Shown here piece by piece: positions 663-55,361 of a stretch of DNA of 55,553 nt; position 1 is the first letter of the stretch; each line of letters begins with the position of its first letter. The notes beneath the pieces were generated by a model. That model worked only from the letters and a program-made list of their open reading frames with translations. It was not told the DNA's origin and did not search any database. This DNA comes from a virus (lineage: Duplodnaviria > Caudoviricetes): IMG/VR virus record IMGVR_UViG_3300023265_000002, positions 1 to 55,553 of that record; one strand, written 5' to 3'. The translations under genes were made by a program, and so were the position numbers.

Positions 663-692
663 TTGACACCCCCCACGGTGGGGGGTTAAGGT
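663..692 (+). promoter_or_regulatory. Palindrome-spacer promoter/operator, leaderless
   Basis: TTGACA-CCCCCCACGGTGGGGGGT-TAAGGT, ATG 6 nt downstream. Confidence 0.85.
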
Positions 693-698
693 GAGCGC

Positions 699-947
699 AT
701 GACGAACGCAGACGACTTCCCCACCTTCTCCGGCGACCTGACCGAGGAGTACGCGCTCGCGCTGCTCATCGACCCGAACGGCCCGCAGGTCTACGCCGCG
801 GCCCGCGCAGCGCTCGCCCGTCCGGTGACCTACGCCGCCCCGCGCCAGTCCACCCGCCCCGCGGCCTCCCCGGTCGGCGGCCTCCGCTTCACCGGCATGA
901 CGCACGACGGCCTGGCCTGCTACTCCGGCCCGGTCGTGGGAATCTGA
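699..947 (+). CDS. hypothetical protein (leaderless, MTN start)
   Basis: ORF with GC3-biased codons directly after the promoter. Confidence 0.8.
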   Translation: MTNADDFPTFSGDLTEEYALALLIDPNGPQVYAAARAALARPVTYAAPRQSTRPAASPVGGLRFTGMTHDGLACYSGPVVGI

Positions 948-1126
948 TGTTCACCCCGCGAGCAGGCGCTGACCTGCCTTACGTGATGATCGCCGACGAC
1001 GGCAGCGAGTGGGTCAACCACAACGACCCGGACCAGACGGTCGACTTGATCGGCGGCGACCCGGAAGACACGTCGACCCTGGGCATCCTCGAGGCGCACG
1101 GCTACCTGTTCCGGAACGCGTCGTGA
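947..1126 (+). CDS. hypothetical protein (59 aa, not in ORF track)
   Basis: TGATG overlap with the upstream gene; MFTPRAGADLPYVMIADDGSEW... Confidence 0.7.
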   Translation: MFTPRAGADLPYVMIADDGSEWVNHNDPDQTVDLIGGDPEDTSTLGILEAHGYLFRNAS

Positions 1127-1329
1127 CCAGCTCGCCGGTCGTCCGGCACTTCCCGCTGCGCGACGGCGGGACCGACATGACCGTGACGCTGCACGGGGAC
1201 GGCACGGTCTGGGTGGGGGACTCATGGGACAACTTGGTCCAGCTCGAGGGGGACCGCCTGCACGCGCTGGCGGACGCGCTGCTCGCGGTGCACGTGTTCC
1301 GCGGGCGTCAAGCGGGCACGAAGCGGTGA
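1123..1329 (+). CDS. hypothetical protein
   Basis: GTGA overlap; typical codon usage. Confidence 0.7.
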   Translation: MTSSPVVRHFPLRDGGTDMTVTLHGDGTVWVGDSWDNLVQLEGDRLHALADALLAVHVFRGRQAGTKR

Positions 1330-1433
1330 GGGAGTTCCTCAAGGCCGTGGCCGTCGTCTGTGCCGCGGTGACCTGTGCGCTGGTGGTGGGTGTCGCGCTG
1401 CTCGTGATCCTGCTGCAGCTCCGATGGATCTAG
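1326..1433 (+). CDS. small membrane protein
   Basis: GTGA overlap; single hydrophobic helix. Confidence 0.6.
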   Translation: MREFLKAVAVVCAAVTCALVVGVALLVILLQLRWI

Positions 1434-1447
1434 CGGTCCGGTGCGCC

Positions 1448-1888
1448 GTGCGGGTGACCCGCTTCCTGCACGCGCTGCTGTACGGCGTCGGCCTGACGAT
1501 GATGTTCGCGCGGCTGTGGGCGCAGGTGGCGGCCTCGCGGTACTGGCTTCCCGAGTGGCACGCGCCCGTCATGGTGGCGTTCTGCTCGGTCGTGCTGGTG
1601 GCGTGCCTGGCCTACGCCAGTTGCGTACCCCCCACGATGGGGGGTACAGTCCGCGGTAGCAAGACACCCGCAACCCAGGAGGCACCCCGTGGACACGCTC
1701 GTCGGCTGGCTCATGATCGGCGGAACACTCTGGCTGTCGTGGCCCGGCTTCACTACCGGACGCCAGCGCGTCGCGCTCGTCGCCCTGGTGCTGCTCGTCC
1801 CGCTCGTCTCCTGGGTGTGGACCATTACGCGGGGCGTTCGCGCACGTCGCGCACAAGCCGCAGACCGGCGGCTCGCCCAGCTCCGTGA
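1448..1888 (+). CDS. membrane protein (2 TM); 3' end runs through the next promoter cassette
   Basis: Hydrophobic N-terminus with good codon usage; C-terminus overlaps the operator and the next gene. Confidence 0.45.
   Translation: MRVTRFLHALLYGVGLTMMFARLWAQVAASRYWLPEWHAPVMVAFCSVVLVACLAYASCVPPTMGGTVRGSKTPATQEAPRGHARRLAHDRRNTLAVVARLHYRTPARRARRPGAARPARLLGVDHYAGRSRTSRTSRRPAARPAP
1621..1650 (+). promoter_or_regulatory. Palindrome-spacer promoter/operator
   Basis: TTGCGT-ACCCCCCACGATGGGGGG-TACAGT. Confidence 0.8.
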
Positions 1889-2054
1889 GCAGTCCGTGCA
1901 GCGAGCGCGGGACATCACCTACTGGCGCGAGCAGCGCGCCGTCGCCATCACCCTCGGCGCAGCGCGAGACCAGGCCGTCGCCGAGGACGTGCTCGACGCG
2001 CTCGGCGCAACCTACCGTCAACCCAGTAGCCCTACCCCCCATCATGGGTGGTAG
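1689..2054 (+). CDS. membrane protein
   Basis: RBS AGGAGG, GTG start, two TM segments. Confidence 0.8.
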   Translation: MDTLVGWLMIGGTLWLSWPGFTTGRQRVALVALVLLVPLVSWVWTITRGVRARRAQAADRRLAQLREQSVQRARDITYWREQRAVAITLGAARDQAVAEDVLDALGATYRQPSSPTPHHGW

Positions 2055-2057
2055 GGT
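2030..2057 (+). promoter_or_regulatory. Degenerate palindrome operator/promoter
   Basis: CCCTACCCCCCATCATGGGTGGTAGGGT; -10 TAGGGT, weak -35. Confidence 0.55.
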
Positions 2058-2081
2058 GTCGCTACCCCGAAAGGACCCGAC

Positions 2082-2186
2082 GTGTTGCAGCACGCAGCCC
2101 CGAGGAAGGGCTGCTTCGGCTCCATCGCGACCGCCCTCGCCGCCGTCCTCGTGACGTTCGGCCTCATCCGGAAGGCACTCCGGTGA
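2082..2186 (+). CDS. small membrane protein (34 aa, not in ORF track)
   Basis: RBS GAAAGGA, GTG; MLQHAAPRKGCFGSIATALAAVLVTFGLIRKALR; stop overlaps the next start. Confidence 0.6.
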   Translation: MLQHAAPRKGCFGSIATALAAVLVTFGLIRKALR

Positions 2187-2368
2187 CCACCAAACCGATC
2201 AAGCGCAGCACCGTTGCGGAGCCGCTCGCCGTGCTCGTGCTGCTGGGCGGGCTCAGCGCCTCGCTCATCCTGTCCGGCTGGCTTCCGCTGTGGGGCAGCG
2301 TCGCCGTCGCGAGCTTCCCGCTGGCGCTGGCCGTCGCCGGGTTCCGCACCGTGGCGCGTGTCCGGTGA
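2183..2368 (+). CDS. small membrane protein
   Basis: GTGA overlap; two hydrophobic helices. Confidence 0.7.
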   Translation: MTTKPIKRSTVAEPLAVLVLLGGLSASLILSGWLPLWGSVAVASFPLALAVAGFRTVARVR

Positions 2369-5570: not shown

Positions 5571-5660
5571 ACGACCACCAGTGGGAACGCCCGCTGACCT
5601 GCGGCCGAGGTGTTGGGGGCTGGACCCCTGACCCCTCGGCCGTTTGGTTGGGCCCCAGAT

Positions 5661-5689
5661 TTGACACCCCCCATCATGGGGGGTAAGGT
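5661..5689 (+). promoter_or_regulatory. Palindrome-spacer promoter/operator, leaderless
   Basis: TTGACA-CCCCCCATCATGGGGGG-TAAGGT; ATG at 5697. Confidence 0.85.
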
Positions 5690-5696
5690 CACTCCC

Positions 5697-7172
5697 ATGA
5701 CGAACAAGGGAGCAACGGTGAAGCTGACCGAGAAGCAGCGCGAGACCATCGACCGCCTGGCGGGCACCCACGGGCAGGGCTACGTCGGGCTGACCTTCGT
5801 CCGACCGAACACGTGGCGTTCGCTCGTCGGCGCTGGCCTCGTGCAGGAATCCAGCAGCGTGCCCGGCATGTTCAAGCTGACCGAGCAGGGCTACGCGGCC
5901 GCCGGTATCAAGCCCACCTACGACGGCAACATCCGCTCCGCCGAGGGTTCCGCCCGGCTCGAGCACCTGCGTCGCGGCAACGACTCGGCCATGCGCACCG
6001 CGGAGGCCGCGCACCTCCGCGACTCGCAGGTGCTGACGGACTCCCACGGCACGCGCATCGGCGTACTGGGCACGGAGCTGGTGAACGGGCGCACGCGGCT
6101 CTGGACCGTCGACCTCGCCCAGCCGACCATGTCGCCCCTGTGGGTGGACGCGACCCCAGAGATGATGGACATCCTGTTCGTCGCCGAGGGGTGGGCCCGA
6201 CCGCTGTTCATGCGACGCAGCGACTCAGCCCTGCTGTTCCGTGTGCTCGGCAGCGACAGCGAGGGCGTGAACCTGGTGGCTGTGAACGACGAGCGCTACG
6301 AGCTGCACCGCGAGCTGAGCGCGCTGGTCGAGGACGGCTGGATCGCGACCGACCACAACGGCAACGCGCAGGCGCGTCCGGCCGAGACGGACGTCGCCGA
6401 CATCCTGCACCTGATCGACAACCCGCCCACCGTCCGCGAGCTGGACCAGCGCCGGACCGACGAAGCGCTAGAGGGTGTGGTCGAGTCGGACGACGGCCAC
6501 GTGCTGATCGGTGAAGTGCCCCGCGGGCTCGACACGTTCTACTGGGTGGTGCCGGTCGCAGGCGAGCGGCTGACCGACCGGCACGACGTGCTGGGGCCGT
6601 ACGCCACGCTGGACATGGCCGAGTGGAAGCGGGACCAGTACGTCGCCGCGGGCTACCCCTGCAGGGCTCTCGCGTCCGTGACCCGCCCGACCCTGGTCGC
6701 GGTCCCCGCGCAGCCTGCACCGCCGTTCGCCCAGGGCGACACGGTGCTGCAGCTCGACGGGACTCCGGCCGAGGTGTTCGAGGTCGTCGGCGAAACCACG
6801 GTCACCGTGCGCACCGCCGACGGCGAGCTGTGGGAGCACGAGGCCGACGAGCTGTCGCCGCTCGACCCGGACGACCCGCGCGGCCGACCGAAGACGCCCG
6901 CCGAGCTGGCCGAAGACGCCCGCGGCCTCGAGCAGCAGCGCCTCGAGGCCGCCCGGAACTCGACCGACCCGACCGTCCGCGCGTTCTACGGGGTCGACCA
7001 GCCGCGGTGCAGCGAGCACGATGCCTCGTGCGCCGACGGCTGCACCCACCAGCACCGACCGGCGGAACACCGTGTGGTCACGATGACGCTGGCCGAGTAC
7101 ATCGCCAGCGTCGCCGCCACCGTGTCCGCCGTCCGTCGCGCGGCCATGCTGCAGGAGCGCGCCGGATGCTGA
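5697..7172 (+). CDS. multidomain hypothetical protein (N-terminal winged-helix-like, SH3-like segment)
   Basis: MTN start; KLTEKQRET...LVGAGLV...KLTEQG wHTH-like pattern; PFAQGDTV...DELSPL SH3-like pattern. Confidence 0.8.
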   Translation: MTNKGATVKLTEKQRETIDRLAGTHGQGYVGLTFVRPNTWRSLVGAGLVQESSSVPGMFKLTEQGYAAAGIKPTYDGNIRSAEGSARLEHLRRGNDSAMRTAEAAHLRDSQVLTDSHGTRIGVLGTELVNGRTRLWTVDLAQPTMSPLWVDATPEMMDILFVAEGWARPLFMRRSDSALLFRVLGSDSEGVNLVAVNDERYELHRELSALVEDGWIATDHNGNAQARPAETDVADILHLIDNPPTVRELDQRRTDEALEGVVESDDGHVLIGEVPRGLDTFYWVVPVAGERLTDRHDVLGPYATLDMAEWKRDQYVAAGYPCRALASVTRPTLVAVPAQPAPPFAQGDTVLQLDGTPAEVFEVVGETTVTVRTADGELWEHEADELSPLDPDDPRGRPKTPAELAEDARGLEQQRLEAARNSTDPTVRAFYGVDQPRCSEHDASCADGCTHQHRPAEHRVVTMTLAEYIASVAATVSAVRRAAMLQERAGC

Positions 7173-7267: not shown

Positions 7268-7533
7268 CGCAGGTCAGCGCGACGTTCTCGATCGCGGGCA
7301 GTGGCTACGCCGAGGGCGAGCTGAACGTCGACCCGGCGCGCATGTCGCCCGCGTACGTGGCCGAGGTGATCGCTAACCGCCTGTGGCCTGGGGTGACCTT
7401 GTGCCACCAGTGCGACGGCGAGATCAGCGACCCGGAGATGACCGAGGTCACGAGCTTCACCATCGGCGACAAGACCTGGTCATCGCGCACCGACCCGGCG
7501 ACGGGCGTCACCGACTGGTTCCTCGAGCCGTGA
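7264..7533 (+). CDS. hypothetical protein
   Basis: ATGA overlap; CHQC motif. Confidence 0.75.
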   Translation: MTQVSATFSIAGSGYAEGELNVDPARMSPAYVAEVIANRLWPGVTLCHQCDGEISDPEMTEVTSFTIGDKTWSSRTDPATGVTDWFLEP

Positions 7534-7910: not shown

Positions 7911-7953
7911 TGGTCGGGGCGCTGCCCACTGGAGATGCGCAGCGCCCCGACCA
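7911..7953 (+). terminator. hairpin terminator
   Basis: TGGTCGGGGCGCTGC...GCAGCGCCCCGACCA. Confidence 0.7.
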
Positions 7954-8004: not shown

Positions 8005-8033
8005 TTGACACCCCCCACCGTGGGGGGTACGGT
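8005..8033 (+). promoter_or_regulatory. Palindrome-spacer promoter/operator, leaderless
   Basis: TTGACA-CCCCCCACCGTGGGGGG-TACGGT; ATG at 8041. Confidence 0.85.
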
Positions 8034-8040
8034 TACCCAC

Positions 8041-8325
8041 ATGACGCACACCGAGAGCATCTACACCGCCGACGACCACGACTACCTGATCGTTCCCGGC
8101 GTCCTGCTGGACACCGAAGAGGGCCTCGAGTGGGGCATCGACTGGGACCAGCAGCTCGCCGAGCAGGGGCAGATCGCCCTCATCGACTCGAGCGGCGAGT
8201 TCGGCGAGATCGTCAGCATCGACGACCTGCGCACCTCCGACCGCTGGACCGCCGTCCGCCGCGACGACGCTGCGCGCGTCTCGCTCGCTACGGCGGCCGA
8301 GCGGCTGCGCCGGTCCGGCCAGTGA
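8041..8325 (+). CDS. hypothetical protein (leaderless)
   Basis: ATGACG start directly after the promoter. Confidence 0.8.
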   Translation: MTHTESIYTADDHDYLIVPGVLLDTEEGLEWGIDWDQQLAEQGQIALIDSSGEFGEIVSIDDLRTSDRWTAVRRDDAARVSLATAAERLRRSGQ

Positions 8326-8924
8326 CGGCGCGCCTTCGCGTGCTCGCGGCCTGCGAGTTCAGCGCCGCGGTCCGGGACGCGTTCCTCGCGCTCGGCCACG
8401 ACGCGTGGTCGTGCGACCTCGAGCCGACCGACGGCGACCCGGCACGGCACCTGCAGGGCGACGTGCTCGAGGTGCTCGACAACGGCGGGCAGTGGGACCT
8501 GGTGCTCGGCTTCCCGCCGTGCACCGACCTCGCCGCGAGCGGGGCGCGCTGGTGGCCGGCGAAGCGGGAAAGCGGGGCGCAGCAGCGCGCGGTCGACTTC
8601 GTGCTCGCCATCGCGAACCACCCGAACGCGGACCGGGTCGCGATCGAGAACCCGGTCGGCTACCTGTCGACCGCGTGGCGCAGGCCGGACCAGATCATCC
8701 AGCCGTGGCAGTTCGGTCACGGCGAGGTCAAGACGACGTGCCTGTGGTTGCGCGGCCTGCCGCTACTCGAGCCGACGGACGTCGTCGAGGGAAGGGACCA
8801 GACGGTATGGCGAATGGCGGACAGCAAGGGGCGGGCGAAGCGCCGCTCGATGACGTACCGGGGGGTCGCGCTCGCAATGGCCTCCCAGTGGGGAGGCCGC
8901 GTGCAGACGGCAGCCACAACGTGA
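8322..8924 (+). CDS. DNA cytosine methyltransferase-like protein
   Basis: VLAACEFSAAVRDAF, SCDL, catalytic FPPCT, IENP motifs. Confidence 0.8.
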   Translation: MTARLRVLAACEFSAAVRDAFLALGHDAWSCDLEPTDGDPARHLQGDVLEVLDNGGQWDLVLGFPPCTDLAASGARWWPAKRESGAQQRAVDFVLAIANHPNADRVAIENPVGYLSTAWRRPDQIIQPWQFGHGEVKTTCLWLRGLPLLEPTDVVEGRDQTVWRMADSKGRAKRRSMTYRGVALAMASQWGGRVQTAATT

Positions 8925-9814: not shown

Positions 9815-9844
9815 TTGACACCCCCCACCGTGGGGGGTTACTCT
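9815..9844 (+). promoter_or_regulatory. Palindrome-spacer promoter/operator, leaderless
   Basis: TTGACA-CCCCCCACCGTGGGGGGT-TACTCT; ATG at 9851. Confidence 0.85.
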
Positions 9845-9850
9845 ACTGCC

Positions 9851-10081
9851 ATGACGAACACGAGCGGTACCCAGGCCATCGCCCCCACCACGCCCGCCAA
9901 CGCGGTCACCGAAGAGCAGGCCTTCCGGATGCTCGGCGGCATGGGCATCACCGAGGACCTGATCGCGGGTGCCTTCTACCGCCTGCGGAACCGGCCGATC
10001 ACCGTTCTCGAGCAGGGCGACCGCACGTTCAGCTTCGAGCGTCTGGGCACCGACGTGTACGTGATCACCGCGGACGCCTGA
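9851..10081 (+). CDS. hypothetical protein (leaderless, MTN)
   Basis: ATGACGAAC start. Confidence 0.8.
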   Translation: MTNTSGTQAIAPTTPANAVTEEQAFRMLGGMGITEDLIAGAFYRLRNRPITVLEQGDRTFSFERLGTDVYVITADA

Positions 10082-11175: not shown

Positions 11176-11197
11176 GCACCTGCCTCGAGCACGACAA

Positions 11198-11229: not shown

Positions 11230-11241
11230 GGTGTGCCGGGG

Positions 11242-11418
11242 TCAGAGTGAGCGGATGGCGTTCTCGATCAGGGCGGCCGCGTGGATGGGGGCGAGCATCC
11301 TCGCCTGGCGGCGACGGGCGTCGCGGGCGTGCTCGGTGAACCCGAGTGCCTCGCACTTGCGGGCGATGCGGGCGTTGTAGTCGGCGAGGAGGTTCTCGGC
11401 GTGCATCGTGTTCGTCAT
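11242..11418 (-). CDS. hypothetical protein (leaderless, MTN)
   Basis: ATGACGAAC 6 nt after a minus-strand -10. Confidence 0.75.
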   Translation of the reverse strand: MTNTMHAENLLADYNARIARKCEALGFTEHARDARRRQARMLAPIHAAALIENAIRSL

Positions 11419-11424
11419 GACACG

Positions 11425-11454
11425 AGCGTACCCCCCACGGTGGGGGGTACGCAA
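11425..11454 (-). promoter_or_regulatory. Palindrome-spacer promoter/operator, leaderless
   Basis: TTGCGT-ACCCCCCACCGTGGGGGG-TACGCT on the minus strand. Confidence 0.85.
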
Positions 11455-11491: not shown

Positions 11492-11521
11492 TTGACACCC
11501 CCCACGGTGGGGGGTTAAGCT
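11492..11521 (+). promoter_or_regulatory. Palindrome-spacer promoter/operator, leaderless
   Basis: TTGACA-CCCCCCACGGTGGGGGGT-TAAGCT; ATG at 11528. Confidence 0.85.
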
Positions 11522-11527
11522 ACTCCC

Positions 11528-11758
11528 ATGACGAACAACGGAAGCCACACCATCACCACCACGGTCACCGACAACGCCACCCCGGAGCAGTGCACGCACC
11601 TCCTGCGCACCATCAAGGACGTGCGCGGCACGGGCACCCGGCTCGCCGTGAAGATGATCGACCAGTTCATGCGCATCACCGAGACGGACACCGACGGCGA
11701 GAAGCTGGCCATCGACGTCTACCCGAACGGCACCGTGACGGACCCCTTCCACGTCTGA
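11528..11758 (+). CDS. hypothetical protein (leaderless, MTN)
   Basis: ATGACGAAC start. Confidence 0.8.
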   Translation: MTNNGSHTITTTVTDNATPEQCTHLLRTIKDVRGTGTRLAVKMIDQFMRITETDTDGEKLAIDVYPNGTVTDPFHV

Positions 11759-11770
11759 CCGCCGGCCACC

Positions 11771-11864: not shown

Positions 11865-11893
11865 TTGACACCCCCCACCGTGGGGGGTACGCT
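11865..11893 (+). promoter_or_regulatory. Palindrome-spacer promoter/operator, leaderless
   Basis: TTGACA-CCCCCCACCGTGGGGGG-TACGCT; ATG at 11900. Confidence 0.85.
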
Positions 11894-11899
11894 ACCCAT

Positions 11900-12361
11900 A
11901 TGACGAACACGACGCCCGCCCTTCACGTCCGCCCCTACGACAGCAAGACCGTCTACCGCTTCGCCGCGGTCGACACCATCGAGGAGGCCGGAGGCCACCC
12001 CGCCGACCGGAGCGTCTACCTGGTCGACGTCGCCAGCGGCCGCGAGATGATGGTCTTCCTCGGCGACTTCTGCGCCTACTTCGTCGCCGTGTGCGAGCAC
12101 GGGCACAAGCAGGACTGCTGCCTCGAGGCGCAGTGCCAGACGGCCGAGGACTTCGCGCTCGACCTCCGGGTCCGGGCGGACGACCCGCGCCCCGGCGACA
12201 TCGTTCAGGTGGTCGCCACGGGCGAGGAGGACGGCGACCTCGCCGCCGAGCTGCCCCTCGGCACCATCGTGATGAAGGCGGGCCCCGGCGCGATGGTGGC
12301 GTTCGAGGGTCGCGACCGCCCGATGTGGCTGGCCTGGGAGCAGCTCCACTTCTGCGACTAG
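11900..12361 (+). CDS. hypothetical protein (leaderless, MTN; SH3-like C-terminus)
   Basis: ATGACGAAC start; PRPGDIVQV...WEQL. Confidence 0.8.
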   Translation: MTNTTPALHVRPYDSKTVYRFAAVDTIEEAGGHPADRSVYLVDVASGREMMVFLGDFCAYFVAVCEHGHKQDCCLEAQCQTAEDFALDLRVRADDPRPGDIVQVVATGEEDGDLAAELPLGTIVMKAGPGAMVAFEGRDRPMWLAWEQLHFCD

Positions 12362-12368: not shown

Positions 12369-12398
12369 TTGCGTACCCCCCACGATGGGGGGTACGCT
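12369..12398 (+). promoter_or_regulatory. Palindrome-spacer promoter/operator, leaderless
   Basis: TTGCGT-ACCCCCCACGATGGGGGG-TACGCT; ATG at 12405. Confidence 0.85.
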
Positions 12399-12404
12399 AT
12401 CCAC

Positions 12405-12713
12405 ATGACGAACACGGCGAACGCCCCCCAGGCCAGCTACGACCGCACCGCGGCCGCCCGCACCTACACCCGGCGAGTGCAGATCACCTTCGCCTACGGC
12501 ATGAAGCTCGCCTGCGAGATGGACCTGTCCATCGCCGACATGGAGAACCTGCGCCGGGACGGCGACATCGAGCCGGACGCCTCGTGCGTCGACTGCGGTG
12601 CGCACGTCACCGAGTGCCCGGAGATCGCCCCTCTGCTGCTGGACTGGCCGGAGCGCACCTACTCGACCACGTGGGGCCCGGACCTCGTCAGGGGCGAGCT
12701 GAACCCCGTCTGA
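12405..12713 (+). CDS. hypothetical protein (leaderless, MTN; CxxC...H...C)
   Basis: ATGACGAAC start. Confidence 0.8.
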   Translation: MTNTANAPQASYDRTAAARTYTRRVQITFAYGMKLACEMDLSIADMENLRRDGDIEPDASCVDCGAHVTECPEIAPLLLDWPERTYSTTWGPDLVRGELNPV

Positions 12714-19187: not shown

Positions 19188-19216
19188 TTGACACCCCCCA
19201 CGATGGGGGGTACTGT
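19188..19216 (+). promoter_or_regulatory. Palindrome-spacer promoter/operator
   Basis: TTGACA-CCCCCCACGATGGGGGG-TACTGT. Confidence 0.85.
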
Positions 19217-38391: not shown

Positions 38392-38431
38392 GCAGACCCC
38401 CCACTCGAGTCGGTTCGGGTGGGGGGTCTGC
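38392..38431 (+). terminator. hairpin terminator (arms contain operator half-sites)
   Basis: GCAGACCCCCCAC...GTGGGGGGTCTGC. Confidence 0.65.
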
Positions 38432-38628: not shown

Positions 38629-39126
38629 CTACAACAAGGTGATCTGCTCGCCTGCACCGATCCGCTTGAGCGCGTCGCGACCCTCGTCGGTCACCTGCCA
38701 CACCGTCCAGGGTGAGGAGTTGTGCACGCGAGTGAGCGCGCCCTCGTCCGCCATCGCGGCCTGCACGTAGCCAGCGTCGACCAGCTCGCCGCGGCGACGG
38801 CGCTCCGAGCTGATGCCGATCGCGAGGTCGGCCTGCAGCTCGAAGTCGGTCGCCCCGTAGTCCCCCATGTGGGCGAGCTGCTCGAGCACGCGGGAACGCT
38901 GGGTGCCCGTGGCCAGCACGACCGGGCGAGGCGTGCCCGGCATCGTGTGCGGCTCCTCGACGCTCAACCACTGCACCAGCCCGGCGGCCGCGAGCTGCAG
39001 CTCGTGCCCCAGGGCGGCCGCCACCTGGGCGACGTCGGCGGGTCGACGCGACCGGTCGAGGTCGACGAGCAGGGCGCGGGCCCGCTGCACGGCGTGCAGG
39101 CTCATGCCGGGCCCGGACAGGGTCAC
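38629..39126 (-). CDS. winged-helix DNA-binding protein
   Basis: GATDFEL...RRRGELVDAGYV...VW.VT.EG. Confidence 0.65.
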   Translation of the reverse strand: MTLSGPGMSLHAVQRARALLVDLDRSRRPADVAQVAAALGHELQLAAAGLVQWLSVEEPHTMPGTPRPVVLATGTQRSRVLEQLAHMGDYGATDFELQADLAIGISSERRRRGELVDAGYVQAAMADEGALTRVHNSSPWTVWQVTDEGRDALKRIGAGEQITLL

Positions 39127-41719: not shown

Positions 41720-42204
41720 GGGGCCACACTCCTTTCGACGATGACTTTCCTCGACGGGTCGGTGTCGTGCTCGCCGTCGATCACCTGCAGGACGCAGGCG
41801 CTGCAGCAGTCGTCCTCGAGGGGGCGACCGTCCATGTCGTATGCGTACACCGTGCAGTCGCGCAGGGCGGCCGCGCGCCCGCTGGTGCCGCCGAAACCGT
41901 CGCGCGGGATGGTGACACCGGGGCAGTTCGTCTTGTCGCACCAGTCCCAGGATGGGACCTCGCGCTCGACGATTCGGTACTCGATGAGGTAGGTCCGGAG
42001 CGCGTCGCCGATGGCGTAGCCGCCGACGATCAGGTTCCGGCGGGCGACGTAGGAGCGCTCGAGTTCGGAGCGCTGCACCTTGACGGTGAGGTTCCCGTCG
42101 GTGATTTCGTACCAGTCGCCGCGGAAACCGGGCGGGGCGGGACACGCGCCGAGCATGGTCCACTCCGTGCGGTCCCACGGTCGGAGGAGCTTTCGGTTCG
42201 TCAT
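41716..42204 (-). CDS. hypothetical protein (leaderless, MTN; Cys-rich)
   Basis: ATGACGAAC 7 nt after a minus-strand -10. Confidence 0.75.
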   Translation of the reverse strand: MTNRKLLRPWDRTEWTMLGACPAPPGFRGDWYEITDGNLTVKVQRSELERSYVARRNLIVGGYAIGDALRTYLIEYRIVEREVPSWDWCDKTNCPGVTIPRDGFGGTSGRAAALRDCTVYAYDMDGRPLEDDCCSACVLQVIDGEHDTDPSRKVIVERSVAP

Positions 42205-42211
42205 GTCAGTG

Positions 42212-42241
42212 ACACTACCCCCCCACCGTGGGGGGTGTCAA
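42212..42241 (-). promoter_or_regulatory. Palindrome-spacer promoter/operator, leaderless
   Basis: TTGACA-CCCCCCACGGTGGGGGGG-TAGTGT on the minus strand. Confidence 0.85.
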
Positions 42242-44926: not shown

Positions 44927-44927
44927 G

Positions 44928-46193: not shown

Positions 46194-46228
46194 CGGGGTT
46201 CCCTTGCTGGTCGGGGATTGGGTGACGG

Positions 46229-46582: not shown

Positions 46583-46617
46583 GGTGTCGTGACCTCCTCT
46601 CGTGCTCGACTGCACCG

Positions 46618-46646
46618 ACCATACCCCCTATGATGGGGGGGCACAA
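46618..46646 (-). promoter_or_regulatory. Palindrome-spacer promoter/operator at the left/right divergence point
   Basis: TTGTGC-CCCCCCATCATAGGGGG-TATGGT on the minus strand. Confidence 0.75.
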
Positions 46647-47025: not shown

Positions 47026-47026
47026 A

Positions 47027-47054
47027 CAATCCCCCCTGCGACGGGGGGTATTGG
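47027..47054. promoter_or_regulatory. variant palindrome site
   Basis: CAATCCCCCCTGCGACGGGGGGTATTG. Confidence 0.4.
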
Positions 47055-47322
47055 TGAAATCGTCGCAGGTCAGAGACGGAACAGGCGCTCGAGGTGATCC
47101 ACCCTCGAGCGCCTGCCGCCCGCGGGGACGGGCTCCGACCTTCGTGCCGCAGTTCCAGCCAGCGCACCCCCTATCCGAGGGGGTACAGGCGGAGCGTACA
47201 TCGGCGGTCCGGAGCGCGGTAGATCGACCGTGATAAGTTCGGCAGGCAAAGTAAAGGGCCCGCGACGTGGCAAGCGTCCGGGCCCTCGGAGACACCCTGA
47301 ACGAAGGAAGGGGGTGTGCTCG

Positions 47323-48060
47323 TTGAGCACCCTACCTGATGTACGGCGTAGCCACGAAACCGGCTCGCCCTTCGACGCCCTCCGGCAGTATCGGCCCGAC
47401 GGCACCGAGTTCTGGTCAGGCCGTGACCTCTGCCCGCTGATGGGCTACGGGCGCTGGGAGCGCTTCGCCGACGCGATCGACCGGGCGAAGATCGCAGCGC
47501 GGAACACCGGCATGGACGTGACCAGCCACTTTCGCGCCTCCGCGAAAATGGTCGCACGCTCGCAGGGGGGCGGCACTCCGCAGGAGGACGTCCAGCTCAC
47601 CCGCCAGGCGGCCTACCTGGTGGCCATGAACGGCGACCCGCGCAAGCGGGAGATCGCCGACGCGCAGGCCTACTTCGTGGTGCGCACCATGCAGGCCGAG
47701 GTCGCTGTCCCTGTGCAGCCGACGATGTCCTCCATCGACGTGCTGCGCCACGCCCTCGACCGGATCGAAGAGGCGCAGCAGGAGGCCGCGAACGCAACCC
47801 TGCTGGCGCGCACGGTGACGGCGAGGGTCGACGCGATCGAAGGGCACTACGACGAGTTCGCCGCGCTCGGCTACGCGAAGCTGCACAAGCTTCGGACCGA
47901 CCGGCCGTACCTCATCCGGCTGGGCAAGGCGGCGACCGCGGCCATGCGCACCGAGGGGCAGGAGCCGCGCAAGCGACAGGATGCGACGTTCGGGCAGATC
48001 AACGTCTACCCGACGTGGGCCCTCGACGAGGCGCTGCTGCAGCTCGAGGGCAACGCGTGA
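47323..48060 (+). CDS. DinD/Bro-N-like phage antirepressor
   Basis: SPFD.LR....G.EFWS.RDL..LMGY..W..F..AIDRA and AYLVAMNGDPRK.EIA.AQ.YF motifs; start codon uncertain. Confidence 0.85.
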   Translation: MSTLPDVRRSHETGSPFDALRQYRPDGTEFWSGRDLCPLMGYGRWERFADAIDRAKIAARNTGMDVTSHFRASAKMVARSQGGGTPQEDVQLTRQAAYLVAMNGDPRKREIADAQAYFVVRTMQAEVAVPVQPTMSSIDVLRHALDRIEEAQQEAANATLLARTVTARVDAIEGHYDEFAALGYAKLHKLRTDRPYLIRLGKAATAAMRTEGQEPRKRQDATFGQINVYPTWALDEALLQLEGNA

Positions 48061-48982: not shown

Positions 48983-49011
48983 TTGCACCCCCTAACGGTT
49001 GGGGGTACGGT
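48983..49011 (+). promoter_or_regulatory. variant palindrome-spacer promoter, leaderless
   Basis: TTGCAC-CCCCTAACGGTTGGGGG-TACGGT; ATG at 49018. Confidence 0.7.
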
Positions 49012-49017
49012 TGGCGC

Positions 49018-49755
49018 ATGGAGGACAGCGACCGCCTGGACGACCGGGTCGGCAAGCTCGCGCACGGCCTGATGGCGCAGGGCTTCCGGGCCCGCGGCCT
49101 CGACCCGCGCCGGATGCCGCGCCTCACCGAGGAGGAGAAGCGCAACGAGGAAGCGCGCGCCTTCGGCGAGTGGCAGCGGGCGAAGGCCGAGATCATGCTC
49201 TCGACGCTGCCCGCCCTCTACCGGGACGCGACGTTCCCGAACACGGCCGAGGGGCGCAAGGCCTTCGGCTGGTGCGACGAGTACCGGCGCGGCATCCGCC
49301 GACCCCTCGCGATCATGGGCCCGGTCGGCACCGGCAAGACGTGGATCGCTGCCGCCGTCGCCCGCGAACTCCTGCTGCGCGGAGCCCCCGCCCCGCACGA
49401 CCCGACCGGGCCCGGCACGCTGCCGGTCCCCGTGCGGTTCATCGCGGTGAACGAGATGCTGCAGTCGCTGCGCCCTGGTAACGAGTCCGTCGACCTGGTG
49501 GCCTACTCGGTGCCGCCCGTGCTGGTGCTCGACGACCTCGGCACCGAGCGGCTGACGGAGTGGGAGTCCGACCAGTTGTTCATGCTGGCCAACGCCCGCG
49601 TGAACGCGCAGCTCCCGATCGTCCTGACGACGAACCTCGAGCCCGCCCAGCTCAAGGCGCGTTACGAGCAGCGCACCGTTCAGCGCCTCTTCGCCGGGGC
49701 CGAGGTCGTGGCCACCCACGGGCAGAGCATCCGCAAGATGCCCGAAGGGTTCTGA
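49018..49755 (+). CDS. DnaC/IstB-like AAA+ helicase loader
   Basis: GPVGTGKT Walker A; LVLDDLG Walker B; TTNL. Confidence 0.9.
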   Translation: MEDSDRLDDRVGKLAHGLMAQGFRARGLDPRRMPRLTEEEKRNEEARAFGEWQRAKAEIMLSTLPALYRDATFPNTAEGRKAFGWCDEYRRGIRRPLAIMGPVGTGKTWIAAAVARELLLRGAPAPHDPTGPGTLPVPVRFIAVNEMLQSLRPGNESVDLVAYSVPPVLVLDDLGTERLTEWESDQLFMLANARVNAQLPIVLTTNLEPAQLKARYEQRTVQRLFAGAEVVATHGQSIRKMPEGF

Positions 49756-50956: not shown

Positions 50957-51439
50957 GTGCACCTCGCCCCGCGACCGACCGACTGGGCAATCCAGATGCC
51001 GTGGCCTCGCCCGCCCATCACCCTCAACGACCGGCACCACATGCGCGAGCGCGCCAGCCTGACCAGGCTCATTCGCAACGACACGAACGTGCTCGCCCTC
51101 GCCGCCCGCCTACCTCAGCTCGACCGCGTCACGCTCGGCCTGATCTGGTACCCCGGCGACAACAAGGTGACCGACGCGGACAACATCGCCCCCACGTTGA
51201 AGGCCGCGATCGACGGACTCCGCGACGCGCACGTCCTGGTCGACGACAACGGTCGCCACGTGCTCACCACCTGGCAGCGGGTGGTGGCCCGCCGCGACGA
51301 CCCGTTCAAGAGCAACCGCCCGCGCGTGCTGCTGGTGGTGCACGACGCCACGGGCGACAATCCGTTGCAGCACTACCCGCCCGCCCACACGGGAAGCCTG
51401 GTCTCCGGCAGCTTTGGACCGGGCTGCGATGGGGGGTAA
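50957..51439 (+). CDS. RusA-like Holliday junction resolvase
   Basis: DADN..PTLKA.IDGL..A.VL.DD motif. Confidence 0.85.
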   Translation: MHLAPRPTDWAIQMPWPRPPITLNDRHHMRERASLTRLIRNDTNVLALAARLPQLDRVTLGLIWYPGDNKVTDADNIAPTLKAAIDGLRDAHVLVDDNGRHVLTTWQRVVARRDDPFKSNRPRVLLVVHDATGDNPLQHYPPAHTGSLVSGSFGPGCDGG

Positions 51440-51442
51440 TCT
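51414..51442 (+). promoter_or_regulatory. promoter with operator right half-site, upstream of terminase
   Basis: TTGGAC-17 nt ending CGATGGGGGG-TAATCT. Confidence 0.5.
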
Positions 51443-52056: not shown

Positions 52057-53856
52057 GTGACGTCCGCGCTGTTCTCGCGCCTCGCGGACCGGTTCGAACA
52101 ACGGGTGAACCCGAAGCCGAACGAGACCCTGCTCCGCTTCCCCACCCCCGGCGAGCTGGCGCGCTTCGTCCGCAACGACACGGTTCAGACCCCGATGCTG
52201 GACAAGTTCGACGAGGCCATCGTCCTCGCCGACAAGGGCGAGCAGCGACGTTGGATCATCAACTGCCCCCCGCAGGAGGGCAAGAGCACCCGCGCGCAGG
52301 CGGCCGCCCTGTGGCTACTGCTGCGCGACCCGACCAGGCGCATCGCGTTCGCCTCCTACGAGCAGTCCCTCGCCCGCGTGTCCGGCCTCGCCGTGCGCCA
52401 GTACCTCGAGACGCACGGCTCCGGCTACCTCGGCGCTCGCCGCGACGCGGACCGGAAGGACGTCCTCGGCCTCGCGCTGGACCCGGTCCGCGGCGAGGCG
52501 ACGAAGTGGGCGCTCGCGAAGACCCCTACCCTCCCGCTGCCCGGAGGCGTGATCAGCGTCGGTGTGGGCTCCGGCTTCACCGGCCGTCCGGCGGACGTCC
52601 TGTTCATCGACGACCCGATCAAGGACGCGCAGGCCGCGGACTCGCCGAAGATCCGGCAGAACGTGATCGACTGGTACCTCGCCGTCGCGTCGACCCGCCT
52701 GTCCTCCGACGCGATCGTGATCGTGGTCCAGACCAGGTGGCACGAGCAGGATCTCGCGGGGTGGCTCGAGGCCGAGGACGACCCGGACGAGCCCGCCTGG
52801 CGGAAGGTGGCCGTCGCCGCGCAGGCGATGAAGCCCGACCCGGAGGCGCAGCCCCCGATCGGCGAGGACCCCCTCGGCCGCAAGCCCGGCGAGTTCATGA
52901 TCTCGGCTCGAGGCCGGACCGCCGAGGACTGGGAGAAGATCAAGAAAGCCCAGGGTCGCGGCACCTCGCGCTGGTGGTTCGCGATGTACCAGCAGCGCCC
53001 CGCCCCGCCCGCGGGCGGCGTGTTCCAGCGCGAGTGGTTCCGGCGCGACCGGCTCACCGAGCGGCCGCCGATGAAGCGCACCCTCGTGATGGTGGACCCT
53101 GCGGACAACGAGGGCGACGGCGACGAGGCGGGCATCATCGTCGGCGGCGTGTCGACCGACGGCCGGTATGCCGTGCTCGCCGACTGGTCCGGGCACTACA
53201 CGATCGACCAGTGGTTCCGGCGCGCCTACCTCGCGTGCTTCGAGTTCGACGCCTCCGCCGTGTGCTGGGAGGCCAGCCTCTCCGGCCTTCGTCGCTCGGC
53301 GGCCTCGACGTGGAAGCGCGTCCGCGAGGAGGCGCGCGTCCTGGTCGCCGCGTGGAAGCACGTGCACGGGGAAGACGCCGTGTTCCCGGAGCGCGACCAG
53401 CACCCGCGTGCCGCCGTGCTGGTGGTCGCCTGCGAGATGCTCGCCCGCGAGGAGGACGACAAGCAGGACGCGATGGCGCAGCGGCAGAAACTGGTCCAGC
53501 TCTGGCCGTACGTGCGCGCCATCCGCTCCGCCCCGCGCACCGGGCCCCCGCTCAAGTCGGTCACGGCGAAGGGCAGCAAGACGCAGCGCGCCGAGTTCAT
53601 CGCCCCGCTGTACGACAACCGCGAGGTGTCCCACGTCGGGCACCTCGCCCAGCTCGAACACGAGATGTCCACATGGCAGGTCACCCAGAAGTCGCCCAAC
53701 CGGATGGACGCGAACGTCCACCTGCTCACGGAGCTGTCGCGCTCCGACGGCGGCTCGCTGCAGCGGGCGTCCGGCCCGGACCTGCAGCGTCACGGGGGCG
53801 TGCGCCAGGCGCAGCAGGTGCCCACGACCAGCGTCGGTAGCAGGGGGTGGCGATGA
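52057..53856 (+). CDS. terminase large subunit
   Basis: PPQEGKS Walker A; LFIDDP.K Walker B; TRWH..DL and YQQ.P motifs; VDPA and SPNRMDA nuclease motifs. Confidence 0.95.
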   Translation: MTSALFSRLADRFEQRVNPKPNETLLRFPTPGELARFVRNDTVQTPMLDKFDEAIVLADKGEQRRWIINCPPQEGKSTRAQAAALWLLLRDPTRRIAFASYEQSLARVSGLAVRQYLETHGSGYLGARRDADRKDVLGLALDPVRGEATKWALAKTPTLPLPGGVISVGVGSGFTGRPADVLFIDDPIKDAQAADSPKIRQNVIDWYLAVASTRLSSDAIVIVVQTRWHEQDLAGWLEAEDDPDEPAWRKVAVAAQAMKPDPEAQPPIGEDPLGRKPGEFMISARGRTAEDWEKIKKAQGRGTSRWWFAMYQQRPAPPAGGVFQREWFRRDRLTERPPMKRTLVMVDPADNEGDGDEAGIIVGGVSTDGRYAVLADWSGHYTIDQWFRRAYLACFEFDASAVCWEASLSGLRRSAASTWKRVREEARVLVAAWKHVHGEDAVFPERDQHPRAAVLVVACEMLAREEDDKQDAMAQRQKLVQLWPYVRAIRSAPRTGPPLKSVTAKGSKTQRAEFIAPLYDNREVSHVGHLAQLEHEMSTWQVTQKSPNRMDANVHLLTELSRSDGGSLQRASGPDLQRHGGVRQAQQVPTTSVGSRGWR

Positions 53857-54296
53857 CCCGCCGAGTTCCGCACCAGCCGTCCGCGATCATGCTGCAGGTC
53901 GAGACCCTGCCGTCCGGCGGCTACCGGTTCAGCAGCCCGCAGGCGCGCGGCTGGGCTGCTGTGGCGGCAAACCCTGGGGACGTCCTGCGCAGCCTGCACA
54001 CGGCCTTTCAGGAGGTGCAGATCGCGTCCTACGCGCGGGCCCGCGCGGAGGTCTACGACCTGGACGCGCTCACGGCGCACGTGCCCGGCGACCCTCTGGC
54101 GGCCGCGCCACAGCAGCGCATCCGCCGGCCGCGCAACCCGAACACCCGGCGCACCCACTCGCCCGCGGACTGGTCGAAGATGACCGACCAGTCCGGCACC
54201 CGCTGGCGCTCGCCGTCGGGGCGCATGTACCGCGAGGACACGGCGACAGTGCGCAACATGGTCGCCAAGAGGACGGCGCTCGGCCTCCCCATCTAG
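53853..54296 (+). CDS. hypothetical protein
   Basis: ATGA overlap; W.SP.GR motif. Confidence 0.75.
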   Translation: MTRRVPHQPSAIMLQVETLPSGGYRFSSPQARGWAAVAANPGDVLRSLHTAFQEVQIASYARARAEVYDLDALTAHVPGDPLAAAPQQRIRRPRNPNTRRTHSPADWSKMTDQSGTRWRSPSGRMYREDTATVRNMVAKRTALGLPI

Positions 54297-54323
54297 ACCC
54301 CCCACGGTGGGGGGTGCTAACGT
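54294..54323 (+). promoter_or_regulatory. Palindrome-spacer promoter/operator, leaderless, extended -10
   Basis: TAGACC-CCCCACGGTGGGGGG-TGC-TAACGT; ATG at 54330. Confidence 0.75.
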
Positions 54324-54329
54324 GGTGAC

Positions 54330-54656
54330 ATGAAAACTGCAGCAGTCGCCCTCCCGCGCAGGGGAGCCATCGCGGCACTCGAGGACTACGGGTTCGGGCA
54401 CAAGGTCCGGAGCGGCCGATCCACGTACACGCTGACGACCGGGTTATTCCGAATCCGGGCGTCCTGGTCGGCGGCATCCGGGGATAACGCCGTGCTCACC
54501 ATTGCCATGCGGGACGGCAAGGGCGCCTACGTGGACATCAGCCGATCCGAGCTTGCCGTCCCGTTCGACGACCCGCGCACCAGCGGCGAGGTCGCTCGCG
54601 CAGCGCTGGCTTTCGCTCGCAACGTCGAGGCCTACTGGGGTTACGGCGGCGACTAG
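54330..54656 (+). CDS. hypothetical protein (leaderless)
   Basis: ATG 6 nt after the -10. Confidence 0.75.
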   Translation: MKTAAVALPRRGAIAALEDYGFGHKVRSGRSTYTLTTGLFRIRASWSAASGDNAVLTIAMRDGKGAYVDISRSELAVPFDDPRTSGEVARAALAFARNVEAYWGYGGD

Positions 54657-54663
54657 TTCCGAC

Positions 54664-54693
54664 TTGACACCCCCCAATGATGGGGGGTACGGT
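54664..54693 (+). promoter_or_regulatory. Palindrome-spacer promoter/operator
   Basis: TTGACA-CCCCCCAATGATGGGGGG-TACGGT. Confidence 0.8.
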
Positions 54694-54730
54694 TGCGGAG
54701 CACGGCAAGCAACCGAGAGGAACACCCCGA

Positions 54731-55006
54731 ATGATCACCCGCAAGAGGATCGCCCTCGCGCTGGCACTCGCCGCACCGCTGCTCATGGCGGCGAAGTGCG
54801 GCGAGGCCGCCAACGACGACGGCCCGGAGAAGCTGACCGGGTCCATCGGCCTCAAGTTCGGTCCCGACGTCCCCGCCACCCTCGACGGCCGGAAGTGCAC
54901 CTACGGTGGCTTCTGGGTGACCAGCACTGAGGGCAAGTGGTACGTCTGCGCACCCAGCCAGAAGGTCTGGGACGCAGCCAAAGAGGGCGACACCTTCACC
55001 CGCTGA
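54731..55006 (+). CDS. putative lipoprotein
   Basis: RBS GAGAGGA; basic N-terminus, hydrophobic core, LMAAKC lipobox-like motif. Confidence 0.7.
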   Translation: MITRKRIALALALAAPLLMAAKCGEAANDDGPEKLTGSIGLKFGPDVPATLDGRKCTYGGFWVTSTEGKWYVCAPSQKVWDAAKEGDTFTR

Positions 55007-55052
55007 CCCGATTCGCGATTCGCGAATCACCCGACGAACAGGAGGGAACCGA

Positions 55053-55151
55053 GTGCGCAAGCGCAGGCGCAAGCGGTCGAACATCCAGCTCGAGCCGCCG
55101 ACGTGCCCGTACTGCTGGCGCGTGGCCGGGCACATGGGGCCATGCAGGTGA
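55053..55151 (+). CDS. 32-aa basic Zn-finger-like microprotein (not in ORF track)
   Basis: RBS GGAGGG, GTG; MRKRRRKRSNIQLEPPTCPYCWRVAGHMGPCR. Confidence 0.55.
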   Translation: MRKRRRKRSNIQLEPPTCPYCWRVAGHMGPCR

Positions 55152-55324
55152 GCCGTCGGCGAGAGCGCGCAGTCAGCCTGCCGCCGAACTCGATCGGCCC
55201 CCGTGAGGCCCCGGAGTACCGGGGCGGTGCGTCCCGCGCCAGCCACGCCGAGCTGACCGAGCTGGCGGACGTGCGGGACAACGAGCGCCCGCCGGGCTGG
55301 GTGCCGCCGGAGATCCCGGAGTAG
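55148..55324 (+). CDS. hypothetical protein
   Basis: GTGA overlap. Confidence 0.55.
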   Translation: MSRRRERAVSLPPNSIGPREAPEYRGGASRASHAELTELADVRDNERPPGWVPPEIPE

Positions 55325-55332
55325 ACCCCGAC

Positions 55333-55361
55333 TTGCACCCCCCCACGGGGGCGGGTATGGT
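55333..55361 (+). promoter_or_regulatory. variant palindrome-spacer promoter driving the large ncRNA
   Basis: TTGCAC-CCCCCCACGGGGGCGGG-TATGGT. Confidence 0.7.

Follow-up and report, generated by a model that had tools for sequence, protein, structure and literature searches.

The virus record IMGVR_UViG_3300023265_000002 of IMG/VR was analyzed whole (55,553 bp, rated 100% complete; hereafter, the window), and represents a metagenomic, uncultivated soil siphovirus of high-GC bacteria. Nearly all of its transcription units begin at one near-identical promoter type, in which a 17-bp palindrome, CCCCCCA-N3-TGGGGGG (the dyad), fills the 17-18 nt spacer between a TTGACA or TTGCGT hexamer and a TAnnnT hexamer. 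Judging from their sequence, these elements are very probably sigma-70-type promoters, and the dyad is tentatively read as an operator for a symmetric (dimeric) regulator, an interpretation to which we give somewhat less than an even chance. Genome-wide regulatory repeats and promoter families are a known kind of phage system, and the family described here is a new variant of that kind.

The pattern CCCCCCANNNTGGGGGG had 12 exact copies in the window and 21 copies at up to two mismatches, against 0.69 expected (maximum of 4 in 100 shuffles), while a control pattern read backwards gave 0 matches in the window. The estimate of about 20 copies made in a previous reading of this DNA without database searches (the sequence-only reading) was thus confirmed. 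The exact copies, each the same when read on either strand, all lie in promoters: TTGACA or TTGCGT(A) directly precedes 11 of the 12, TAnnnT follows all 12 at a distance of 0-3 nt, and the -35/-10 spacer is filled by the dyad in 11 of 12. A relaxed promoter scan on both strands (TTGACN, TTGNCA or TTGC(A/G)(A/C/T), followed by N16-19 and TAnnnT) resulted in 14 matches, all of them with the dyad and with a spacer of 17 or 18 nt; the -35 hexamers were TTGACA (9), TTGCGT (3) and TTGCAC (2), with TTGTGC additionally found at 46646 on the minus strand. The near-TTGACA -35 and the TAnnnT box at 17 ± 1 nt are those of promoters of the sigma-70 or principal-sigma (SigA/HrdB) type. Moreover, the nine copies of TTGACA present genome-wide (both strands) were all inside dyad promoters, compared with about seven copies expected by chance (estimated by hand from base composition), suggesting that the hexamer is avoided elsewhere. 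The centre triplet of the dyad was found in both orientations (CGG and CCG) relative to transcription, and both this centre and the interior of the -10 box varied within the window while the arms remained constant. The elements detected were the following, in window coordinates (ORF, open reading frame; RBS, ribosome-binding site):

663..701, plus strand: promoter; TTGACA 663-668, dyad 669-685, TAAGGT 687-692, leaderless ATG 699 (gene 699-947).
1621..1650, plus strand: promoter; TTGCGT-A, dyad 1628-1644, TACAGT; within the 3' end of ORF 1441-1659; precedes ORF 1689-2054 through a leader of about 40 nt with AGGAGG (Shine-Dalgarno).
2035..2057, plus strand: variant; one arm of the dyad altered (to GGGTGG, as in relative G001), TAGGGT, no -35; overlaps the stop of ORF 1689-2054.
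5661..5699, plus strand: promoter; TTGACA, dyad 5667-5683, TAAGGT, leaderless ATG 5697.
8005..8043, plus strand: promoter; TTGACA, dyad 8011-8027, TACGGT, leaderless ATG 8041.
9815..9853, plus strand: promoter; TTGACA, dyad 9821-9837, T+TACTCT, leaderless ATG 9851.
11416..11454, minus strand: promoter; TTGCGT-A, dyad 11431-11447, TACGCT, leaderless ATG (gene 11242-11418); its cassette is missing or rearranged in G001.
11492..11530, plus strand: promoter, back to back with the previous one; TTGACA, dyad 11498-11514, T+TAAGCT, leaderless ATG 11528.
11865..11902, plus strand: promoter; TTGACA, dyad 11871-11887, TACGCT, leaderless ATG 11900.
12369..12407, plus strand: promoter; TTGCGT-A, dyad 12376-12392, TACGCT, leaderless ATG 12405.
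19188..19216, plus strand: promoter; TTGACA, dyad 19194-19210, TACTGT; 38-nt gap with GAGAGGGG, then gene 19249; heads the block running into the major capsid gene.
42202..42241, minus strand: promoter; TTGACA, dyad 42219-42235, G+TAGTGT, leaderless ATG (gene 41716-42204); downstream of the SSB gene.
46618..46646, minus strand: promoter; TTGTGC, dyad 46624-46640 with AGGGGG, TATGGT; heads the Erf operon.
48983..49020, plus strand: variant promoter; TTGCAC, CCCCTAACGGTTGGGGG, TACGGT, leaderless ATG 49018 (DnaC-like loader); identical in G001.
51414..51442, plus strand: variant; only the G arm is left in the spacer (ATGGGGGG), between TTGGAC and TAATCT; gene 51498 lies downstream.
54298..54332, plus strand: perfect dyad (54298-54314) without -35 (TCTAGA instead); TAACGT 3 nt on; ATG 54330.
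54664..54693, plus strand: promoter; TTGACA, dyad of 18 bp (54670-54687) whose centre has 4 nt, here and in G001, TACGGT; leader with RBS, gene 54731.
55333..55361, plus strand: variant promoter; degenerate dyad between TTGCAC and TATGGT; followed by a stretch poor in ORFs.

The element was thus present at all 14 positions that the sequence-only reading had listed as clear copies, and 13 of them combined a -35 hexamer (9 TTGACA, 3 TTGCGT and 1 TTGTGC, at 46646 on the minus strand), 17-18 nt spacing and TAnnnT; the copy placed at 54294 lacked a -35. Among six proposed variants, those at 48983, 55333 and 2030 were promoter-like with degenerate arms, the one at 51414 kept the G arm only, and those at 36592 and 47027 turned out to be C-run/G-run hairpins without usable -35 or -10. 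The DnaC-like gene was correctly placed in the promoter set, the 48983 variant being located in front of it. A non-coding RNA had also been included: promoter 1621 precedes an ORF instead, and only the 55333 variant leads into an ORF-poor stretch.

An ATG or GTG opening an ORF of at least 30 codons was located 5-7 nt after the -10 box in 10 of the 14 window promoters, so that the transcripts look leaderless. The G+C content at third codon positions was above 0.8 in nine of the 10 ORFs opened by an ATG at this distance, and a gene caller based on codon usage independently picked the same ATGs as the predicted leaderless starts. The first codons after these promoters were alike (ATGACGAAC). In the remaining four promoters, the gap between dyad and start codon was 38-44 nt, with an RBS. 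Long GC-rich hairpins (stems of 11-16 bp), mostly without a T run, close each of the transcription units; they are located at approximately 624-656, 5600-5640, 7911-7953, 11775-11810, 19092-19130 and 42290-42340. These hairpins are mutually dissimilar, and probably act as terminators like those known from high-GC bacteria.

Comparison with the close relative G001 (DNA blocks 78-97% identical, 16 dyad copies at up to one mismatch) showed that constraint is concentrated in the arms. Across 13 orthologous promoter pairs, 4 of 182 arm positions had changed, compared with 15 of 41 in the centre, 48 of 286 in the 22 nt upstream and 59 of 299 in the 23 nt downstream (17-20% for the flanks, figures inflated by a few indels as positions were counted ungapped). 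The earlier description of fixed arms beside a variable centre and -10 interior therefore holds both within the genome and in these pairs. In nine genomes, 109 sites with up to two arm mismatches were found, a set that probably includes a few chance sites: 49 were perfect, 59 had one-sided changes and a single one was compensated, suggesting that it is the sequence that is conserved and not the pairing. Length was also rigid. The eight genomes with C6A/TG6 arms have 67 promoters, with spacers of 17 (35 promoters), 18 (23) or 19 nt (9); the dyad is 17 bp long in 54 of the 67, and 21 of the 32 promoters with an 18-19 nt spacer kept the 17-bp dyad and placed the extra base outside. The perfect dyad at 54298, without -35 and offset 3 nt from the -10, was conserved in G001. 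On these three lines of evidence (arm conservation, one-sided variants and rigid length), selection on the dyad arms, as proposed in the sequence-only reading, is well supported.

The composite pattern was searched beyond the window. A 24-nt form matched 20 stretches in 11 other IMG/VR contigs, and with the contigs added by a wider scan and by gene-based searches the same architecture was found in at least 14 other IMG/VR contigs. The full pattern with 22 specified bases had one match in 185,579 prokaryote species genomes (one genome per species), so the composite would not be a host feature. A BLAST-type search with a 50-nt promoter query gave one match only, at chance level (E = 4), and a full-text literature search for the exact motif strings, with most subscription journals outside its coverage, yielded no dyad strings; the papers matching TGGGGGGTA, and the one matching TTGACACCCCCC, were unrelated, and keyword searching returned nothing of relevance either. 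The arms and the promoter layout were the same in G002-G005, G007 and G008, which have only core genes in common with the window, share none of its small genes and have capsid proteins 39-42% identical to that of the window. Centre triplets were alike in each genome: CCG, TCA and CGA in the window, AAA (or TTT) in G002-G005 and G008, AAG in G007 and CAA in G006. In G006 the runs are C5-6 and G5-6, the element is 15-17 bp long and its centre 3-7 nt. Leaderless starts were predicted for 9 of 13 promoters in G001, 11 of 14 in G007 and none of 13 in G006; in the latter (loci L083-L085), a conserved GGAACGAC string lies about 15 nt downstream of the dyad promoters. In G001, two inverted copies of a promoter plus the 5' end of the homologue of the 11900 gene were observed (39187, minus strand; 39966, plus strand).

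More divergent forms were found in phages with the same core genes. Promoters of G011 and G012, again mostly leaderless, read TTGTGT-CCCG-N9-10-CGGG-TAACAT and TTGTAC-CCCG-N8-10-GGGG-TACATT, where CCCG...CGGG or GTACCCCG...CGGGGTAC flank an unconserved centre of 8-10 nt; in G012, dyad arms of 9 bp extend into both hexamers. G013 has another conserved spacer, non-palindromic, with TGTG before CATAAT. This genome (73% GC; loci L121-L123) contains seven copies of TAGACA followed by a short variable stretch and GTTAGGTGTGTGCATAAT, a non-palindromic, extended -10-like repeat. The variants of the relatives suggest that the theme of a -35, a C run, a G run and a -10 is clade-wide, and that the exact 17-bp palindrome is the version of one group of lineages.

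In the interpretation that we prefer, the promoters would be the phage's own set for host RNA polymerase with a principal-type sigma factor, and transcription would mostly start at or beside the A of the ATG, giving leaderless mRNAs. They would head about 15-20 separate transcription units, most of them composed of small genes without assigned function in a variable block of about 15 kb between terminase and portal, and the others corresponding to the recombination and replication operons and the capsid block. The dyad, with its two 7-bp arms, half-site centres 10 bp apart and free centre, would be an operator at which a two-fold symmetric DNA-binding protein, probably phage-encoded, sits between -35 and -10 and switches all promoters together, most simply by blocking RNA polymerase. 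The fixed 7-3-7 layout (54 of 67) and the overlap with core promoter elements argue for an operator, as do the conserved perfect dyad at 54298, which does not depend on exact promoter geometry, the indifferent orientation of the centre and the near absence of the composite from host genomes. A symmetric binder may be available in the conserved winged-helix protein described below. The single dimeric regulator postulated in the sequence-only reading is compatible with the symmetry and the rigid 17 bp, yet no binder could be tied to the motif. Its early regulon stood in part, as the set also takes in the capsid-block promoter 19188, the replication and recombination operons, and about 13 cassettes without assigned function.

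Five non-structural genes without assigned function are common to the clade. Conserved small phage proteins are encoded at 12877-13251, 39746-40483 and 44072-44926, as well as at two loci considered as possible sources of a regulator:

38629..39126, minus strand: conserved winged-helix (PadR/MarR-like) protein of 165 aa, on the basis of a predicted model and its structural matches.
53847..54296, plus strand: conserved protein of 149 aa, encoded after the large terminase gene and followed directly by the first dyad.

The product of 38629-39126 is the sole clear DNA-binding fold among the conserved non-structural genes. Its model had a pLDDT of 90.7, and the C-terminal 90 residues best matched winged-helix repressors of the PadR and MarR types (Foldseek E = 4e-3 to 3e-2, probability about 1; none at E <= 0.001). 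The family comprises 2,834 representative clusters at E <= 0.001, nearly all metagenomic, and corresponds to no Pfam family; the 55 close homologues are all metagenome proteins without a name, with the exception of one from an Amycolatopsis genome. The family is marked by an invariant RPRRGELV motif and by a helical hairpin at the N terminus. From its modelled fold, the protein is a weak candidate for the dyad binder. The protein encoded at 53847-54296 is always located directly upstream of the first dyad promoter across relatives: in the window the dyad at 54298 begins one base past its stop, with the TCTAGA at the place of the -35 overlapping the stop codon, and a dyad promoter directly follows its homologue in G001, G004, G006, G007 and G008. 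As a lead only, its N-terminal part resembles HicB/DUF1902, and an atlas look-up for 39746-40483 pointed, also as a lead only, to phage DUFs. Pfam searches at E <= 0.5 with 44 unannotated proteins detected no clear helix-turn-helix (HTH) or ribbon-helix-helix domain, with a TacA-like hint (E = 0.028) in 42906-43283, and PDB profile searches with candidate proteins A1, A2 and A4 gave nothing significant.

Several observations weigh against the operator interpretation. Half-site spacing is not constant in G006 (15-17 bp) nor across G011 and G012, so one rigid dimer cannot explain the element clade-wide. In the winged-helix protein, the recognition helix keeps its motif RPRRGELVD in G011, G012, G013 and more distant phages, which have other promoter motifs, and hence provides no signal of co-variation; G011 and G012 have all five conserved candidate genes and G013 has four of them, so that presence or absence of these genes does not discriminate either. 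No repressor or integrase (Pfam, PHROGs) and no CsoR-like gene were found in the window. Furthermore, the same operator would act at early-looking and at capsid-block promoters, with no obvious temporal logic and no visible lysogeny module. Finally, the G run abuts the -10 box, at the very position in which a TGG is common to strong Streptomyces promoters (PMC12809767), and could have another role.

This last point belongs to an explanation with no separate regulator, in which the C run after the -35 and the G run before the -10 are an intrinsic promoter element, read by the host RNA polymerase or shaping the DNA for it, either as an extended -10/-35-like contact or as a stiff, A-form-like spacer. 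It agrees with what is common to all lineages (a C run by the -35, a G run by the -10 and a spacer of 17-18 nt), with tract and centre lengths that depend on the lineage (C6/G6; C5-6/G5-6 in G006; CCCG...CGGG in G011 and G012), with the order of the runs (C then G in 120 cases and the reverse in 5 across G000-G008, non-promoter hairpins included), with the retention of the G arm only in the 51414 variant, with the TGTG before CATAAT at the same place in G013, extended -10-like, and with the Streptomyces TGG. However, it leaves unexplained the exact two-fold symmetry, including the inner A and T, and the perfect dyad at 54298, gives no reason for keeping the 17-bp dyad with the extra base outside (21 of 32), and has to accommodate the near absence of the composite from host-type genomes when scanned as the whole 22-base pattern. 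We consider it unlikely. A related proposal is slightly less probable: the dyad would be a previously undescribed core-promoter element that marks the clade's "self" promoters, read by the actinobacterial RNA polymerase holoenzyme directly or via a conserved phage factor riding on the polymerase. If so, the phage would keep its 15-20 leaderless units running, or all off, independently of host promoters, and the lineage forms C6/G6, C4/G4 and C3/G3 would track the specificity of host or factor. Copying could account for the family in a different way, if the promoter of about 45 bp were a portable cassette head homogenized by recombination and the dyad mainly shared homology. Most copies are in the variable small-gene block, and the window and G001 differ by a promoter-plus-gene cassette (approximately 12360-12716, lacking in G001) and by an inverted, rearranged segment at 11.2-11.9 kb (11179-11822) bounded by promoter copies; centre triplets and first codons are alike within a genome and the triplets differ between lineages. 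Copying alone, in contrast, explains neither the fixed arms beside a diverging centre and flanks nor the same arms in phages with about 40% capsid identity, and the window-specific insertions at 7273-7533 and 43809-44069 are not bounded by promoter copies, so that in this one close pair copies are involved in two of about five differences and not in two others. This explanation seems improbable.

In a further explanation, the dyad would work as a nucleic-acid hairpin. Read-through RNA could fold into a stem-loop that acts as terminator, insulator or 3'-end stabilizer, or supercoiling-driven cruciform extrusion, named in the sequence-only reading, could disrupt the promoter. The stem of 7 bp with a 3-nt loop reaches -12.7 kcal/mol as RNA, promoterless C-run/G-run hairpins occur elsewhere (38393-38430, 47031-47048, 7891, 47167), some dyad copies lie 1-14 nt past a stop codon, and loop length is variable in G006. 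Nevertheless, one compensated site against 59 one-sided breaks is not the footprint of pairing; as DNA the stem amounts to merely -7.1 kcal/mol; no T run follows the dyads and no dyad site appeared in generic terminator scans; two copies are preceded by no gene that points the same way; and a hairpin would not require the exact position between -35 and -10. In addition, the gaps of about 100 nt upstream of 669, 5667, 8011, 9821, 11871 and 19194, and of 145 nt upstream of 42219, each contain their own, much longer GC hairpin, so that read-through RNA should mostly end before the dyad. A hairpin, cruciform, terminator or insulator is therefore very unlikely. Least probable of all would be a site for a host repressor, the dyad mimicking the G/C-tract operators of the CsoR/RcnR family (or similar) so that a host sensor gates the phage promoters. 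Type-2 CsoR operators (PMC3902906) consist of G tracts flanked by a TAC/GTA dyad (S. lividans consensus ATATACCCCTNAGGGGTATAT), with an A-form-like readout of the G tract, and like the dyad lie within promoters; (G)TA-C6-A-N3-T-G6-TA(C) here and GTACCCCG...CGGGGTAC in G012 resemble them, as interrupted G/C-tract palindromes with TA-containing flanking dyads. On the other hand, the spacing is TAC-X9-GTA in S. lividans and TAC-X15-GTA in the TTGCGTA copies of the window, the left flank is mostly ACA rather than GTA, the copy number is 1-3 per genome as opposed to 15-20 per 55 kb, and it is hard to see why a phage would put all its promoters under a host repressor. A CsoR-family gene in the phage itself was discarded, as a six-frame search of the window with PF02583 came back empty at E <= 10.

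Among known systems, L5 stoperators and the conserved inverted repeats of phiC31 are many short operator copies by which one repressor silences the genome, in temperate phages with a known repressor and integrase. L5 stoperators lack symmetry, depend on orientation and lie for the most part within transcription units, not in promoter spacers; unlike them, the window dyad is symmetric, has its centre in both orientations and is accompanied by no repressor or integrase detectable with Pfam or PHROGs. Operators of the MerR type lie in an over-long spacer of 19-20 bp that needs distortion by the activator. The MerR-type mechanism evoked in the sequence-only reading does not fit, since spacers here are of the optimal 17-18 nt, and no MerR-family protein was found in the window by Pfam or PHROGs. 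Lambda-type operators are also 17 bp long, two-fold symmetric, with a weakly constrained centre, and overlap the core promoter; they are few, confined to one switch region and bound by an identified repressor, in contrast to the window, with one site type at nearly every promoter. One locus, 46618-46646, has two divergent, overlapping promoter-like sites that share one dyad: TATGAT occupies the centre on the plus strand and resembles a -10 box for the HNH gene, which is transcribed divergently. The same HNH/Erf intergenic locus (46606-46646), with TATGAT or TATAAT on the HNH strand, was observed in G001-G005 and G008, and has a switch-like look kept across lineages. The idea that the "defective" arm at 46624 reflects tuned operator affinity was rejected, as the divergent -10-like box (TATGAT/TATAAT) in the centre explains it better.

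The nearest described counterpart of the dyad is the 17-bp repeat of Cluster O mycobacteriophages (PMC4351075), a 7-3-7 repeat (TGTTCGGNNNCCGAACA) with 34 copies in Corndog, for which the authors suggest a dimeric binding protein, hold a transcriptional role unlikely and give the function as unknown. In both systems copies are in the tens, arms are invariant and the centre is free, its orientation being without meaning; the Cluster O centre is mostly AAA or TTT, as in G002-G005; the motif is absent from host genomes; and copies flank indels, with recombination between copies in Cluster O, in line with the copying explanation. The Cluster O arms, however, have another sequence and most copies are away from promoters. 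These phages are unrelated to the window: there is no DNA match, and its terminase is about 32% identical to mycobacteriophage terminases. The PeSLs of T4-type phages, described (PMC4122927) as composite terminator/promoter motifs that mediate shuffling, also favour copying to some extent. Like the family reported here, they are short conserved promoter motifs heading small genes without assigned function in hyperplastic regions, and act as recombination points; their stem-loop is a terminator beside the promoter, unlike the window dyad, which is inside the spacer.

Genes of the window were called by codon usage and annotated with Pfam and PHROGs, resulting in the following layout:

52057-53853: large terminase.
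53847 to 13577: block of small genes without assigned function, about 15 kb, spanning the record ends.
13726-16449: portal, followed by a MuF/protease-like gene.
21038-22732: capsid, followed by tail genes and tape measure.
38629-46579, minus strand: block with SSB and Erf.
Plus-strand block: HNH, HTH replication initiator, DnaC-like loader, GH25 endolysin and RusA.
38393..38430: terminator-like hairpin closing the structural operon; arms CAGACCCCCCAC-N14-GTGGGGGGTCTG as in the dyad, no promoter.
47031..47048: hairpin C6-TGCGAC-G6 right behind the HNH stop codon, not promoter-like.

The window has a GC content of 70% and identical ends of 127 bp, which are explained most simply if a circular or permuted genome was assembled with an overlap. 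No close cultured relative was found: megablast of 20000-26000 against 50,697 GenBank phage records gave no match, the major capsid protein reaches no more than about 37% identity with capsids of Gordonia, Arthrobacter and Microbacterium phages, and the large terminase shares 35% identity with a Rhodococcus phage terminase. The variable cassettes, formed by small genes mostly with their own dyad promoter and terminator-like hairpin, sit between terminase and portal, an unusual placement for a variable region that was also observed in G006. A small DNA methyltransferase (PHROG 757, E = 3e-64, no Pfam match) is encoded at 8340-8921, common to G001 only and with no link to the dyad seen.

Searches for structured RNA yielded no tRNA or tmRNA in the window and no Rfam-type family at gathering score over its whole length; at E <= 1, just weak microRNA-precursor (hairpin-like) matches were obtained, in 1-700 and 38340-38640. 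The ORF-poor stretch that follows the 55333 variant (55362-55553 plus 1-660, about 850 nt), 89-95% identical in G001, has T-arm-like strings (GGTTCGAGCCCC; GGGTATCGAATCCC) without a match by ARAGORN or Rfam, and could be a non-coding RNA, an origin or a packaging site. Between the convergent operons, the region 38440-38560 ends in GCAGGTTCGAGTCCTGACGGGTACGCCA, which resembles the T arm and 3' end of a tRNA; none was called there by ARAGORN, and Rfam gave hairpin-type matches only. The 400 nt after the HNH gene (47026-47439) have no called gene. Besides the C6-TGCGAC-G6 hairpin they contain another one, C5/G5, at 47167, and CCTGCGAC could alternatively pair with GTCGCAGG, which lies 20 nt further downstream. 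The order of C run and then G run was observed in non-promoter hairpins as well (7891, 38393-38430, 47031, 47167 and 49796).

If the dyad is an operator, these phages would have a compact global switch on nearly every promoter, and would offer a tractable new model for genome-wide phage control in Actinobacteria; if it is instead read by RNA polymerase, it would be a new spacer element for actinobacterial promoters. The promoters, near-consensus, about 45 bp long, leaderless and available as a natural allelic series, may serve as expression parts for high-GC hosts. Either way, the motif is a sharp signature for a clade of uncultivated soil and leaf-litter phages and for their variable gene cassettes.

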